From contig NW_003526940.1 of assembly GCF_000181795.1 (NCBI RefSeq), positions 1,151,527-1,215,526 on the forward strand: DNA of 64,000 bases. Direction: 5' to 3'. The number at the start of each line of letters is the position of its first letter. Within the stretch, counting starts at the first letter, position 1. Shown piece after piece: positions 6,043 to 41,198 of this stretch. The notes beneath the pieces were generated by a model. That model worked only from the letters and a program-made list of their open reading frames with translations. It was not told the DNA's origin and did no database searches. Position numbers and translations under genes: made by a program. This DNA is from Trichinella spiralis. Lineage: Eukaryota.

Positions 6043-9000
6043 GGAAAAAAATTTTTTTTATACATACGCAAAAATGTATGGATGTTGAATTCAGCACAAC
6101 TGAGAAGAGAAATGTGCATAAGAATAAAAAGCAGAAGAACAACGTCCGTTGTCGAAAATGTTCAGGAACAGCTATGCAGTGCAGTGCAGTGCCTGGCAGC
6201 TGCTGTGCAGAGCAAATAGACGACGACGATTCAGAAGAGCATCCGGTGATGTAATCGATTCAAAGCAAAAGCCACTCACTGTTCCTGACTATGGATCTAC
6301 CTACGCCTGCCATCGTATCCAAGTGTTGAATTAATTCTTTCATCCACCTTCACCCTCATTCACTTATTCATTCATCAGGTGAAACTATATATATACATAT
6401 ATATTATTGAAATGCAATATTCAATCGATTAATAAATAGAAAAAAATGGATTTTTCTATTAATTGTGAATAATAATAATAATAATAATTAATTAAAAAAA
6501 AATAAACAAACAAAAACAAAAGACAATTTTCCAAAATGAACGTCGTTCGTTGTGTTGCTTTGAAATTTGAAATGAAATGCTTTTCCCCAATCAAAGCAGC
6601 TGCTGCTTGACAAAGAAATGCCATGCCTGCCACACGAAAAGACAGTTGTTTCTCAACTTTGGAAATTGGAATTCTTTTTCAAATAAAACTTCCTCCCTCA
6701 GACAACACTTTTGAAATGAAAAATATTTCTCATAAAATTTCTATATATAGAGAGAGAAAGAGAGAAACCAAATTTTTTTGTTTCAAAATTATAATTCCAA
6801 TTTCAACTCAGAGCACAAAGCAATAATGGATAGAAATGAAAATTGAATACAACAGCTTCATCTAATCTGCAATCGATGTTTGTCTACATCAAAATATTAC
6901 AAATGTATACGAAAATTAATAATAAAGAAATGCATTAAAATGAAAGATTTCAAATTATCAATATATTCTTCTTCATCATGATCGATTAATGGATAAATTT
7001 GGGAAAAATATTGAATTAATAATTCAATTAGTTGATAAATTTGAAAACTACTCACCAGAGAATAGAATCGAATAGATCATGTAGATGGTTGTTGTAGATT
7101 TTTCATGTGAAATCCAAATATATAATGGCTTATTGGCAAATTGTTCGTTCGCTTTACCAGAGTAGCAAGAGAAACAAGAAAATTCTTGTCAAATATACTG
7201 ATCAATAAACAATAATAATAATAATTGTTCAAAGTTGGAAAACAGCTTTGAAAAGCTTAATAATCTCAGTTCAATCCCGCAACTGGACGAACGACAGATT
7301 GAACTTCCTCAGAGAAGAGAAGAAAAAAAAACCAAAAGCAAATCACCATCGCCAAGGAGATTAAAGCTCGCATATTTCAATTTCGTGCCAGGCGGTGAAT
7401 TGTGCCCATCAGGAAGAAGCTCGTTTGAAAAATGGAACCACGTTGAAAGTGAGTTCAAAAGCGGCCGACGGTCAGCTGTGGTCAACGTTGAAGAGCGGCA
7501 GTTAATTCAAAATGGATGGGATCCACGCCAACGCTTCCAGCACAAAGTCGGATTCCGCATAGTATAATCAACAACAACAACAACACCACCACCAATAACG
7601 GCAGCTGGCCGTTCGTTGGACGGCTTGTTGATTGTGAAAAATTGACCACCGTCCATCCGACGGTGCAACGATTGGTCAGGTCAAAGCCGCGACACTACAA
7701 CAACCATGCACACAAATCGATCGAACGATTTGCAAATCGTATGCTTTTTTTTCCTCCTCTTCCTCTTTGTTTAATTTATTCACCTTGCATATGCAAATTT
7801 AAATTAATATTTTCAAAGAAATACCAAAGAAAAGCCAAACATGAACAAGAACAACATTACAAACGTTACACGTTAACCTATTATTGACTAACAAACATTA
7901 CACACGCAGACGCAGATAGAAATACACATAATTTCGATAAATTGGAAAAGCTGTTTATTCAGCTATTTGATTTTGTTTATTTTACAGTCGGAAAGGAAAT
8001 AATAATATTTTCACCACCGCAAATGGGACAACTCCAGCCTGCGGGATGTGGAATGAAACGAAAAATTGTCGCTTGTTCACTTCAATTTCACAATAGAACA
8101 TTCACAGCTTCTTCAGCACAAATTCTTTTTAAACCAAAAAGCAAAACGTGGAAAAACGGGAATATTTATTCATTTAAAGAAAAAATGAAAAAAAATATAT
8201 TTCCAAACACAAGACATGATCGTGTAAATTTGTCCTAATTTAGCTTTTTCACTTTACAAATTAACAATCATTGTGTGTGTATGTGTGTGTTTGCGCGATA
8301 AATGTGCTCTTAGAAAATAGAAAAATTAACATTTTAAATTATTGAAATATTCACGCTACACGTCACTGAGAACAGCTAATTTTTTCTCTCATTTTTTTAG
8401 ATTCAAAAAACACTGACTTCTCCGTAGATTAATATTTCTTTTCTTTTTCAACTTGCAATTTATAATACAAAAAATTATCGTATGCACATAAAGAAAATCA
8501 GGTTGTTTTGAACGATTAATTGCTGTTATCATATGTGCCCCATACTGATTCGTATCGAGATTAACCGCATTTGAATGATATTGAAAGATTTGTTGTACAA
8601 TTACTTTAAACCTGCACAGTGTAAATACAGCTTATTGACAAAACAGCAAGACAAATATGTGCAATTCAAACAGATTGCGTGTCATTTGAAGGTGTTCTCA
8701 TTCAACAATTTGATCATGCTTTTCAAAATCAAAATCTTTGTTTTTAGTGCTATACTTTGATGACTAATGCGTTTGCCGCAATACTTTACGATTTGTGCTC
8801 GCAAGCCAAGGCAAAGGCTTTTCATTTCACCAGCTAATATTGTTCAACAGTGCATTTGATGTTTTTCTACAGGCCAAAACCTTTTCAAACGTTGACAATT
8901 TTTTAAATATTTTAATAAAATTAAAAAAATTCAATCAGCATCAAAAAAGAATCATTTATTATTGAACATATAACATATTGTGAGGTTTCAGTTTTTGCAT

Positions 9001-35400: not shown

Positions 35401-35743
35401 GATATAAAACCCAATTTGAAGCAGTTAAGTCTGGCAAATATTTCCTGTTCTATCAAGATACAAACTCACTTACTAATTTACCATTTTTTGTGTTCAATTT
35501 GTTAATTTTTAATTACCACATTTTATATTGTGTTTCACTTTGGTACAATAAAATACACAATAGCAATTGAAATTGTTCTTAAAAATGCTACTAATTAAAA
35601 AGCATAGAATGCGCAAGTTTATTGTATGCAAAAATTGAAATGCAATGTTTATTTGTACAAAATAATGAGAATATTTGAGCAATACGATACCTATTCATGA
35701 TGTTGTGTAATTATCATGTGACCATTTGTTCAACAAGTGTTTG

Positions 35744-37328
35744 TCAAAGTCGTCCGCTGTGCTTCAATAAAATACTCCAATATAAAAGGTTGAATACCAA
35801 AAAAATAGAAGGAAATATTATTCTTGCGTATTTATCAATGTCGCTAGAAGAGCAGCAATGATGGTTTCGGAATTTTTTTGTTGACAGTTTTTTAAATGAA
35901 TTCAAAGAATGCCGCTGAAATCTCGGATATTTCGGTATCGTTGTAGTGGACTGTGGAATTGCAAACGGATCTACCGGATGCATCCATGTTGATGCATTTA
36001 ACGACTGAAGAGAAACAAAATTATTATTTTATTTTCTAACCGAATAAATTGAATAAATAAATTTTACTCACCGTCGTGCTAGTCAGCTTGTCGCATTCAC
36101 ATGGCAGTTCCTCAGTTGTATTCAGTTGGCAAGATGTACTACCTAATTGCCATGGATTCGGAGATGTTTCATGCATTGGAGGTGGTAGACGATTCAGAGG
36201 TGTGAGCAATGAAGGACCTGCAGACATTTGAGCGTCTTCTTGTGCGACTTTTGCAAAAGCGTCTTCAATTTTTTTCTGTTTCTTTCTTTTGTCTTTGTAA
36301 GTGACAAAAGCATATTCAATAAGTGCACAAAATACCATTACGTAGCAGAAACCAAGATATATGTCTACAGCTTTGACGTAGCTTACTTTCGGCAACTGCC
36401 CATTAGTTGTGGTCATCAGTGTCGTCATAGTCAAAACTGTCATAATTCCTAATGTGACTCTAGCCGGAGCTGATTCACGACTTATCCAAAATGAAACCCA
36501 TGAGATCATTACTACCATAAGAGCTGGTTGATAAATTTGTACCCAGTAGAAACTTAAATTTCGAGAAAATGTCAAATGACAGGTTAACCTGGAATAATCG
36601 CCTAAAAAATAAAATGATTACTTTATAACATTTAATATTTAAAAAATCGTTACTTTTAGTTAAGCATATTTTAATATACACTGCATAATGCACAATTTTT
36701 AGATTATTGCTTGCAACAGGACTAATATTTAAACACATCACAATGAAAGCGTATTGATTATACAACATTACAAATAATGTTATCTTTAATACTGAATCAG
36801 AAATGGCAAATGAAATACGAATTATTAATCATGACACATTTGATAATTTAAGCCTGTTGATAAATGTCATATTGATGAACTTCATTTCTTATTAGTAGTT
36901 GTTGTTAGTTTCATAATATTTCTGTTGGTGATGGTGTCGCTTTCCATTCAAAAAACTACCAATAAATTGTTATTAAAAAAGAAAAGCAAAGATATAAATG
37001 AAAATGCTTCATTTCTTCAGAAACAAAATTGATTTAAATAGCAAAATTTCATTAAACTACTATTAAATTGTTCAACGTTACAAATAGATAAAAATTAGCA
37101 CCAATTTTTTAGCAGTAGTAAATTTTACGTGGTTAGCATTACATTAAGACTAAGCTATTTTTTTTTATTTTTGAATGCGCATATTACCTGTACTGAGCGT
37201 AATTTTTCGCTCAACTATGAATAAATCCTGTAGCTCAAACGTCGGTAGCTTACGAATTTCAGCATCAAATGTAACAGACTGGAATCCTTTCAGCCAAAAC
37301 AATCTTATATCAGCATCAGAGTAACCAT
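35744..37328 (-). CDS. unc-49: GABA-gated chloride channel C-terminal module 2 (UNC-49C-like), exons 37188-37328, 36072-36601, 35744-36004
   Basis: (Y)GYSDADIRLFW..LSTG/DYSRL, M1 [20 protein letters not shown]2 [18 protein letters not shown]3 AVDIYLGFCYVMVFCALIEY, M4 IDKYARIIFPSIFLVFNLLYW. It has no N-terminal or Cys-loop exon of its own. Confidence 0.85.
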
Positions 37329-37375: not shown

Positions 37376-37394
37376 TTTGTGAGCACCAGTTGAA
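37376..37394 (-). promoter_or_regulatory. Putative selector sequence upstream of the module-2 acceptor
   Basis: Plus-strand TTTGTGAGCACCAGTTGAA is complementary to 39552-39571 (12 perfect bp, 1-nt bulge, 7 bp). Confidence 0.6.
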
Positions 37395-37813
37395 AAAAGT
37401 ATCTCTTTGGCATTTTATCAAATTATTATATATTCAAGAAAGATGAGACAGTTTACATTATAGAATATGAAATGCAACTTGATTGCCTTGTTAAATAATA
37501 AAATGGGCACCTCGAATATTCGAATTCTATTTTTAAATTCTATTATGCCAGTAATGATAGTATTCAAGCTTTCTTTTTAAATAATTCAATGGAGTAAATT
37601 TTATAAAGATGAATAATAGATTCATATTCTACGGATTTAATCCCAATTTAGCACTTTTTCATAATATATAATACAGAAAAGTAAAACTTAGGCAATGAAG
37701 ATGATTGTTCTTCGCAATGACAATAAGCTCGATAATAAGGATGAATTTTTCACAATTTTTAACGTCCTGAAATATGTTGAAAAAGACATAATCGGTGGTG
37801 AAAAACTTCTGCT

Positions 37814-39305
37814 CTAAACTCTAGAAACTTTTTCATTAATTTCTTGTCGACTAATGAAAAAACATGAAATCCAGTAAACGGCGTTGAAAAACAAAAAAAA
37901 TAAAGGAAACATTATTCTTGAATATTTGTCGATGGATGACGGAGTGACGTGATGTAGCATGTGACGACGCAGTTTTGGTCGAGAGACAATTCGCATAGGC
38001 ACTGGGCGAATTTGATTCATGTCACAATCACATTCAAGCTGTGACATAGAGAGAGAAGGGCTCATATCGGCATTCGCAAAACGCTTAGCATTGGGTCGAT
38101 ATTGAGCTCTATTTTTTGCTGAAGAGGTATAAGGGTAATATGATGATCGGGGTGCAGATCCCTGTAAAGTGAAAAGGATTTATTAAAAAAATCAAATTAG
38201 TTATATTCATCAAGGAATAATCATGCGTGACACTTTCATATTAAAACATTTTGCTAATTCATAAGATTCATCATTTTATACTTTATTTGATTCATTAAGA
38301 AACAGATTTTTTTTCTGCTTGCTGGCTGATAAGATACGCTAAGCTTATATTAAGTGGACAATAAAAAACAAATTTATTTTATAAAATGTTGAAGCTTCTG
38401 CTTTTCATAAATCAAAATTACACATTTTCAAAAGTTATAAAAATATTTTGTAAACAATTTTTTTTCATTAAAAAGCAGCTAATTGTTTAAACGTTAATTA
38501 AGCAGTAACTATATATCGATTGTTGATAATTGTGAAAATAATAATGATAATAATTGAAGCAAATTATAAGAAGAAATAGATGAAGCAGCAACTTACAGAA
38601 GATACGAAAGATGCCATCATTGGATCGGCAGATGATAAAATCCCAGAAGAAGACAAAGGTGGAGGCATATGTTGAACAGTTTGTTGCTGCTTTCGGCGTT
38701 CTTGTTTCATTTTAACTTTTTTGTTCAAGTAACTAACGGCAGCATATTCAATCAATGAAGCAAAGACCATAACAAAACATGTCCCCAAATATATATCTAT
38801 AGCTTTTATGTAAGATACTTTTGGCAAGCTTGCATTAGTAGTGGTCATTAGTGTAGTCATTGTTAACACTGTTGTAACACCAAGAGCAACACGAGCAGGT
38901 GATGCATCACGATGAATCCAAAATGAGACCCAAGAAATGATGACAATCAGCATTGAAGGAATGTATATTTGCATCATATAAAATCCAATGTTACGCACGA
39001 AAACAAATTTTACATGGAGTCGGGAATAATTGCCTTAAATTAAAATTTTTGAAACAAACAAATTCACTATTTTATTGCTTTACATGATAAGTTTGTGTTA
39101 TTTTAAAGAAAACTATTACTATAATCTACATTTATTATTCATAGATGAATAAGTTAAAAGAAAAACATTTTACCTGTACTTAATGTTATTGTTCTATTCT
39201 TCATTGTAAAATGTGCCACATAAAATTGTGGTAAAAATACTTCGTCCATTGTTACAGTTTTGTTTTCAAGCCATCTATATTTTGTGTCTGCTTCAGAATA
39301 ACCGT
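37814..39305 (-). CDS. unc-49: GABA-gated chloride channel C-terminal module 1 (UNC-49A/B or Rdl-like), exons 39174-39305, 38597-39033, 37814-38161
   Basis: (Y)[21 protein letters not shown]1 [20 protein letters not shown]2 [18 protein letters not shown]3 [21 protein letters not shown]4 [21 protein letters not shown], with its own stop codon. Confidence 0.88.
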
Positions 39306-39551
39306 CTATAAAATGAGAACAGAAGTGTGTCACTGAAAAAATCTGATGCTACTTTGTTGCCAGCTTTTTTTGTGCTTCAACAATGTACAAAGCGAGCAGG
39401 GTGGAGGTAAACAAAAGTGAATACCGCGTTCAGCGGTTTACGAGCATTAAAAATGGGAAAAATATCATCACCAAAACTACCGTCTTACTGTAAACAGCGC
39501 TGAAACAGAACTAATTTTCTTATTCTCAGGATTTGACGTTACTGTGCAATA

Positions 39552-39573
39552 TTCAACTGGTGCACCACAAAGT
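39552..39573 (-). promoter_or_regulatory. Putative docking site about 50-70 nt downstream of the shared exon donor
   Basis: Plus-strand TTCAACTGGTGCACCACAAAGT pairs strongly with 37376-37394 and weakly with 39351-39365. Confidence 0.6.
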
Positions 39574-39625
39574 GATAAAATAAAAACGAAATCTACAATG
39601 CATGTGTCTAATTGTTTCTACTTAC

Positions 39626-39708
39626 AGCTTTCAATTTCCAAGGTGCATTCTTGGGAATCCAAAGGAAACAAATGTAGCAACATTGGACAAGATGCAGTTA
39701 CAGTTAAT
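39626..39708 (-). CDS. unc-49: Shared Cys-loop exon of the GABA receptor; upstream exons not visible (assembly gap follows)
   Basis: Encodes LTVTASCPMLLHLFPLDSQECTLEIES and ends in phase 1 (T|GTAAG). This joins either module as S-Y-G-Y (T|AC GGT or T|AT GGT). Confidence 0.9.
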
Positions 39709-39763
39709 CTTAAATATTAAATTGTAGTGTTGTTGATTTCACATAAAAATAAGAACAGATAAA

Positions 39764-39881
39764 NNNNNNNNNNNNNNNNNNNNNNNNNNNNNNNNNNNNN
39801 NNNNNNNNNNNNNNNNNNNNNNNNNNNNNNNNNNNNNNNNNNNNNNNNNNNNNNNNNNNNNNNNNNNNNNNNNNNNNNNNN
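39764..39881. other. Assembly gap (further gaps at 40849-40858 and 41383-41595)
   Basis: Runs of N. Confidence 1.
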
Positions 39882-39889
39882 AATGCTAA

Positions 39890-41198
39890 CGTTACGCGTT
39901 AGCTCGCAATTTCACTTAATTTTACGCATGATTTCTCGCATATGCCTTTGTCAAACATTGTTCGCGTTTCTCGTCACATCACATATGTTGGTAAAGGCGA
40001 TTTTAATACAAAGGAAAAATGCACAATTGACAAATTGTTCACAGTTGCAGCTTTCAAGCTAAACCAAGGAGTGACAAATACTAAATTGTTAGCATCTGAT
40101 TAATTTCTTGATTTTACTGGGAGTGTTCTATTTAAATCTTTCTTATTTCCAGTCCAAGAATTTTACTTTAATATTCACAAAGTTTCTTTCATTACGAAAC
40201 AATCAATATATGTATTTTTATACATGTCGATGAGGTTTGTGGTTTGTATGAAAAATCCTGCTTGACGTTCATACATTTCATATAAAATACAGTCCAACTT
40301 GATTAAGTGCATAAGATTTTGGCCGAAAAAAATTCCCTGTATTTAATTAAACGGTAAAATAATGGATAAGTGCACGGAAATTCTTTCGAAATTCCATGCT
40401 CAATTAACAAACTTAAAATGTAATTTGAAATGCAACATCAAACAGATCAGCTACATTATAGACGCTGTTTTTGATGCGGACAGTTTTAATATTTCGTTAT
40501 CATTGAAATATACATTGAAAGGTTGCAAATGGAAATGAAAACAGATGGCAATTTAAGTGTTCACCAACGCACTACCACCACTTTCATTCAGATGTTGAAA
40601 TAGAAAATTTACAATTTACACCAAATATATAAATAAATTTGTTTTTTGATTTGTAAATAATATTGCAGATTTTTAATTTTTTATTTAAATAAAATATACG
40701 AAGGAAAACAATAAATCTGTTGAACAGGAGCAAAAGAAACATTGGAAAGATTAAAGATAAAATTCGTTTGCAAACCAGAAAAATTTTCAGAGAACAGGCA
40801 GGAAAATCAGAAAAGTATTTCGGTGCTAACAAAAATTAGCAATTGCCANNNNNNNNNNGGAAGACCAATAAATCTGTTAGACAACGGAGCCAAAAGAAAC
40901 CCTTGGGAAGGATGAAAGGTACGTTTCCTTTGCAAACCAGAAAAATTTTTCAGAGGAACCGGGCAGGAAAATCAGAAAAAGTATTTCGGTGCTAACAAAA
41001 ATTAGCAATTGCCAATCTTAATTTTAACTGAGAACTGCACCTGTGGACAATTTATCACTTGTTAACTTTCCCTTTATATTAAAATTGCCATAACCAACAT
41101 ATGTGATTTGATGATGGGAAACGCGAACAATGTTTGACAAAGGCATATGCGTGAAATCATGCGTAAAATTCAGTGAAATTGCTAGCAAAAACGTAACG
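39890..41198. mobile_element. Non-autonomous long-TIR DNA transposon relic, probably Mutator-like (MULE)
   Basis: About 170-bp diverged inverted repeats (39890-~40063 vs ~41022-41198), e.g. GCATATGCCTTTGTCAAACATTGTTCGCGTTTC and its exact reverse complement. The interior has no intact ORF; a faint minus-strand FFGQNL..I.L fragment recalls the MULE FHFxQ region. No TSD seen. Confidence 0.75.

Follow-up and report, generated by a model that had tools for sequence, protein, structure and literature searches.

We observed, in the window (the whole stretch of 64,000 nucleotides of Trichinella spiralis DNA analysed here), a receptor gene laid out as one shared exon followed by two tandem C-terminal modules, splice joints in RNA from that exon to each module, and a complementarity positioned just past the shared donor and just before the second module. 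The shared exon is spliced to either module, and on balance it is probable that a long-range helix of 19 pairs loops out module 1 and favours module 2. In the best reading, this would be a single bridging helix, comparable to that of Drosophila Nmnat, which competes kinetically with default proximal splicing.

The minus strand from 39708 to 35744 carries the 3′ portion of a gene for a Cys-loop receptor, a GABA receptor of the unc-49 type. One exon ending in loop B is followed by two three-exon modules in tandem, each of which completes the ligand-binding domain, adds TM1-TM3, and closes with a terminal exon that holds TM4 and the stop codon. The features, in window positions, are the following.

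39626-39708, minus strand: last shared exon, Cys-loop to loop B region (Pfam PF02931; joints; a loose end at 39710)
39306-39625, minus strand: choice intron of 320 nt, from the shared donor to the module-1 acceptor (joint 39305/39626; spanning contigs)
39552-39573, minus strand: donor-side arm (dock), 52 nt past the donor (pair list, shuffles, fold)
39351-39365, minus strand: weak proximal partner of the dock, 45 nt before the module-1 acceptor (-13.4 kcal/mol; chance-level)
39174-39305, minus strand: module 1 exon A1, end of the ligand-binding domain (translation, joints)
38597-39033, minus strand: module 1 exon B1, TM1-TM3 and start of the loop (PF02932, E 2.9e-39; joints)
37814-38161, minus strand: module 1 terminal exon C1, coding part with TM4 and stop (PF02932 C-terminal match; end of the open reading frame; joint)
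37600-37813, minus strand: module 1 3′ UTR and inferred poly(A) region with AUUAAA at 37641 and UAUAAA at 37605 (contig ends at 37651 and 37685; hexamer scan)
37376-37394, minus strand: acceptor-side arm (distal selector), 47 nt upstream of the module-2 acceptor (forms 19 pairs with the dock)
37188-37328, minus strand: module 2 exon A2 (joint 37328/39626 in X20 and X10; gene model P0142)
36072-36601, minus strand: module 2 exon B2, TM1-TM3 and loop (PF02932, E 3e-36; joints)
35744-36004, minus strand: module 2 terminal exon C2, coding part with TM4 and stop (PF02932; joint 36004/36072)

The shared donor has its GT at 39625, and the acceptors of modules 1 and 2 have their AG at 39307-39306 and 37330-37329, respectively. 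The hexamer scan also found AAUAAA at 35653 and 35623, downstream of the C2 coding part. All seven exon translations equal the T. spiralis proteins P0124 and P0129, with zero differences over the aligned lengths. In tblastn, a full N-terminus matched only the shared exon in the window; the upstream 5′ exons are absent from it, and an N gap lies upstream of the shared exon at 39764-39881. Pfam matches, homologues, the RNA joints and the D. immitis split point agree in identifying an unc-49 locus with a shared N-terminus and tandem modules from loop B through TM1-TM4. The gene model of the preliminary description, an unc-49-type gene with two C-terminal modules and these splice-site positions, is thereby borne out. 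Judged by homology, the modules presumably encode subunits of GABA-gated chloride channels.

In three alignments between the modules, the shared residues number 19 of 43, 70 of 110 and 20 of 37. The two-module layout also occurs in Trichuris suis, T. trichiura and Soboliphyme, while Caenorhabditis has three modules. The TM region was analysed in two trees, of 42 and 24 rows. In these, module 2 of clade I groups with UNC-49C at 98/95, a grouping flagged as long branches meeting, and module 1 is placed without resolution among UNC-49A, UNC-49B and Rdl. C. elegans makes a short UNC-49C transcript. The boundary of the exon equivalent to A1/A2 is the alternative-choice point in both arthropod Rdl and nematode unc-49; the arthropod alternative exon is presumably exon 6. 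Two Rdl-like loci hold two tandem copies of this exon (L041, 341-475 and 1709-1843; L047, 273-407 and 1683-1817), and the tick gene models P0001 and P0005 contain three tandem Rdl-type TM1-TM3 blocks, either tandem genes or another module array. Elsewhere in the window, an uninterrupted reading frame of the dCMP deaminase family runs up to an N gap (41598-42131; PF00383, E 2.6e-22), and a 542-codon uninterrupted reading frame with putative protein-kinase motifs lies at 46230-47858 in an otherwise intron-rich region.

Joints and depths were read from four RNA runs out of 24 (X10, X20, X21 and X22), with X21 too shallow. The module-1 joint 39626>39305 is seen in four raw reads of X22 with two different starts, and in contigs of X20 and X10 at depths of 20.3 and 55.2, respectively. 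The module-2 joint 39626>37328 is present in two of the four runs, in contigs of X20 (depth 45.1) and X10 (depth 29.1), with 29 letters on the shorter side. The preliminary description would have been refuted by RNA in which module 2 is never spliced to the 39626 donor; since this joint is present, that refutation fails. No joint from module 1 to module 2 (C1>A2) was found among the six joints listed, and both modules join the common exon and not each other. Among 31 annotated clade I models inspected (Trichinella, Trichuris and Soboliphyme), 29 fuse modules 1 and 2 in one chain and none leads directly from the N-terminus to module 2; the T. spiralis model P0142, found separately, does so by joining the shared exon to A2. 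The fused annotations can be corrected, as the joint they imply (window 37814-37328) is absent from the RNA joints listed. The work of Williamson (2007) on T. spiralis channels may already describe the two modules.

Contigs span the whole choice intron at depths of 30.8 in X20 and 27.2 in X10, against 0 to 7.4 for the other introns, contig depth being a crude and poor measure of expression. This intron is preferentially retained in two of the three informative runs, and on translation the retained intron brings an in-frame stop two codons in. In X22 (30 reads), there were no retained-intron reads, no mid-intron depth and no module-2 joint above the listing threshold. The retention fits slow removal of this intron, which distal choice needs, and is a hint in that direction. 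Two further features of the RNA concern module 2. In X10, the contig depth on B2/C2 is 343.7, compared with about 113 on A2 and 29.1 at the feeding joint, while module 1 is flat at 55-67; this step (window 35700-37328) possibly reflects an extra module-2-only transcript or library bias. In three runs, the A2-B2 joint (window 36599-37186) deviates by two bases from the GT-AG positions, and a one-base difference at 36600 likely lets the joint slide.

In the distal helix, positions 39552-39563 face 37394-37383 in 12 Watson-Crick pairs, 39564 is bulged, and 39565-39571 face 37382-37376 in one G-U and six Watson-Crick pairs. This gives 19 pairs and -28.4 kcal/mol, and confirms the preliminary description in its coordinates, sequences and pair counts (12 Watson-Crick pairs, a bulge, then 7 with one G-U). 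The sole non-Watson-Crick pair is a G-U on the transcribed strand. As a null, dinucleotide shuffles of the first 100 nt of the intron were paired with those of the last 100 nt before A2. None of 2000 reached -28.4 kcal/mol (mean -13.2, sd 2.2, best -26.3), nor did any in separate sets of 300 and 1000, and at least 12 contiguous Watson-Crick pairs arose in 12 of 5000. The match of the dock to a site ahead of a cassette, namely the distal arm, thus exceeds chance, and the comparison of duplex energy with shuffled introns, put forward in advance as a check, favours the distal pairing.

For an empirical comparison, we scored every seeded inverted pair in the window with a spacing of 100-3000 nt. 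The distal pair ranked 18th of 2145 over the whole window, the 17 stronger ones lying mostly in GC-richer parts including coding sequence, and 2nd of 3728 distinct seeded pairs in AT-rich context, where the only stronger pair is an arm of an inverted repeat of about 170 bp. It is also the strongest of the 18 donor/acceptor combinations in the gene (the next has -19.8), and it falls on the sole one of these that skips a module. The inverted repeat itself (window 39890-40056 and 41029-41198, 1 kb apart, with direct repeats of 38-44 bp) sits between N gaps in the intron preceding the shared exon and represents a mobile element or a misassembly. Another strong duplex in AT-rich context, of -27.5 kcal/mol, joins window positions 7274 and 8040, 766 nt apart.

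When a 2521-nt pre-mRNA was folded at equilibrium, which at 2.5 kb ignores co-transcriptional order and proteins, the distal helix was part of the minimum free energy (MFE) structure, and 17.8 of its 19 pairs are expected in the ensemble. Local opening of the two arms costs 7.2 and 6.0 kcal/mol, leaving about -15 kcal/mol for the helix with loop closure not counted. On these calculations, the arms likely pair in RNA. The 12-mer core occurs in the 64 kb only at the two arm positions. An origin of the arms from a dispersed repeat was rejected, given that the core has only these two sites and that five matches with at most two mismatches were found against 5.0 expected. The core is absent from 79 metagenome loci, and a search of Rfam gave a single chance match (E 0.93). 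An inverted repeat beside the arms (37401-37420 with 39573-39592) was left uncounted, as it would cross the main helix.

The helix would enclose 2157 nt, comprising the skipped module-1 acceptor, three exons including the terminal exon, and the likely poly(A) site. Module-1 contigs end at 37651 and 37685, near the AUUAAA at 37641; therefore, the probable module-1 3′ end falls within the loop, some 250 nt ahead of the distal arm. Across the helix, the donor and the distal acceptor would be 52 + 47 = 99 nt apart, and the skipped form exists in two of the four runs. The predicted geometry thus agrees with the earlier proposal of a looped-out module 1 of about 2.2 kb and a donor brought near the distal acceptor.

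The sequence of events may be envisaged as follows. Early splicing of the 320-nt intron, or cleavage of the transcript some 250 nt ahead of the distal arm, would yield module 1 as the default. If the choice intron is removed slowly, the helix would gain time to form, which is predicted to happen once position 37376 has been transcribed with the choice intron intact. The closed helix would loop out module 1, and the A2 acceptor would be used. Given such a default and such slow removal, the competition would be kinetic, between the helix on one side and proximal splicing and 3′ cleavage on the other, rather than between two selectors, and its balance would determine the proportion of one subunit to the other.

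The relatives compared differ by 0.5-1.7% in introns. In the choice intron, X20 shows five differences and X10 two, none of them in the dock or the proximal site; the distal arm is covered in X10 only, where it is unchanged. For X20, the chance of finding none of five differences in 37 of 320 nt is P=0.54. With relatives about 1% apart and this value, the identity of the arms is therefore uninformative on conservation, and no covariation was seen at this divergence. None of the 79 metagenome loci scanned by tblastn had tandem TM modules of the unc-49 type. A search of relatives for translated traces of the intron found none, and a further one gave 10 matches, none of which extends as far as the distal arm; these scans yielded no diverged orthologous intron. 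Midway through the choice intron there is also a bulged hairpin of 13 pairs (window 39427-39504); one change at 39431, present in X10 and X20, is uncompensated, so the hairpin was not taken as support.

The preliminary description went further and proposed a docking site with two selectors, in which the weak proximal site would also bind the dock, activating module 1 in competition with the distal site. We regard this as unlikely. The proximal partner does exist: positions 39567-39573 face 39357-39351 in seven perfect pairs, followed by six more across a 6x2 internal loop, so that the same dock bases are engaged in both halves with 13 pairs in all, and its spacing is matched to that of the distal site (45 and 47 nt before the respective acceptors). 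Its stem of seven pairs closes the MFE structure of the isolated choice intron, with 2.36 pairs expected, and at the matched position, 40-50 nt before the acceptor, only 165 of 2000 shuffles are as strong. This site is transcribed 2 kb earlier than the distal arm, so a weak helix could still matter. The strength of the pairing, however, is at chance level, since 447 of 1000 and 173 of 300 shuffles do as well. Opening both proximal arms costs about 14 kcal/mol, which turns the net energy to about +1 kcal/mol, as against about -15 for the distal helix, and with the flanking exons folded in the pairing is lost (0.26 and 0.0 expected pairs). The proximal site is matched or exceeded in binding to the dock by at least 11 further sites in the 4.1-kb stretch, and 84 of 100 shuffles of the choice intron fold better than it does. 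The regions upstream of the two modules show no resemblance, as 1002 of 2000 and 880 of 2000 shuffles align equally well, whereas the selectors of PGRP-LC resemble each other. Of the original claim, the position, the seven perfect pairs and the shared dock bases therefore stand, while a second selector that competes for the dock is so far unsupported. With selector similarity lacking and the second selector unproven, the locus is not classed as a docking-site/selector system.

It is distinctly less probable that the distal match is a coincidence and that the choice is set by splice-site strength, RNA-binding proteins or alternative polyadenylation alone. A genome-wide scan will turn up some chance duplexes, and one -27.5 pair in the AT-rich part of this window is unexplained. 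In C. elegans, unc-49 figures in a list of genes with an abundance of splicing-factor motifs (PMC5697891). Against a coincidence, none of 2000 shuffles matched the helix, which sits on the one combination of 18 that must skip a whole module.

A more ambitious version of the switch is a long shot. Here, an ancient dock would pair with selectors before each module from clade I to C. elegans, fixing subunit ratio and pharmacology, with splicing of the choice intron delayed until the decision. Weak proximal selectors are conceivable, and an ancient switch, if true, would be the first dock/selector system shown in nematodes. Finally, it is very improbable that the arms are inverted copies of one DNA element, for example a transcription-factor site, acting as intronic enhancers or as an internal promoter from which a transcript of module 2 alone would start: a CANNTG box lies in the core, the dock also holds a 10-bp palindrome, and the X10 depths on the module-2 3′ exons exceed that of their feeding joint, but this step occurs in one run only, the core is found nowhere else in the window, both copies lie about 50 nt from the splice sites to be joined, and no loose end listed at 37328 or 36601 suggests a new 5′ end.

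A single bridging helix is thus the reading we retain. With one helix of 19 pairs at exact coordinates, the choice between unc-49 modules becomes testable, and, if true, long-range RNA control of 3′ cassette choice extends from flies to nematodes. In the open text of PubMed Central and bioRxiv, we found no mechanism that chooses among the tandem unc-49 modules and none based on RNA pairing for unc-49 or for nematode cassette choice. The class of mechanism is known, and the host gene and phylum appear to be new. Pairings in MRP genes of arthropods, annelids and chordates have reportedly been described by Yue in 2017. The subunits of unc-49 co-assemble and alter the sensitivity to GABA and blockers of the muscle receptor targeted by piperazine (PMC8841521).

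The loop-out in Nmnat has reportedly been tested by mutation in its primary paper, while the Trichinella helix is a prediction only. In both genes, one helix would loop out a terminal exon and its poly(A) signal and bring the distal acceptor near the donor; in the Drosophila long-range loop-out, about 350 nt are looped (PMC10790352), whereas 2157 nt and three exons would be looped here, and the alternatives here are duplicated modules. With respect to gene architecture, the locus is like unc-49 of C. elegans, H. contortus and D. immitis, where a shared N-terminus and tandem C-terminal modules, split in loop B, give co-assembling subunits (PMC8841521; bioRxiv 10.1101/2025.10.30.685166). It has two modules as in D. 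immitis, compared with three in Caenorhabditis. The accessible text of these two accounts, which together with PMC3990606 are the sources on unc-49 architecture and pharmacology, mentions no RNA-structure mechanism. As in exon 6 of Dscam1, intronic long-range complementarity is tied to exclusive exon choice; the Dscam1 case involves internal exon arrays and many selectors, unlike the terminal modules of Trichinella, which are exclusive because they have separate 3′ ends. A duplication model predicts a proximal relic (PMC6071210), and the sequences here are too old to test it. As in PGRP-LC, CG42235 and Pip of Drosophila, a common exon is joined to one of several tandem multi-exon 3′ cassettes, with a dock near the common donor and a partner upstream of a cassette acceptor (PMC6191721). 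Those genes have at least two conserved, mutually similar selectors validated by compensatory mutation, whereas one partner exceeds chance here, and Pan et al. regard pairings of this kind as possibly rarer at 3′ variable regions (PMC6191721). In its presumed mode of action, the Trichinella helix resembles the Nmnat loop-out and also the activation of a single cassette that was tested in CG42235 and Pip (PMC6191721).
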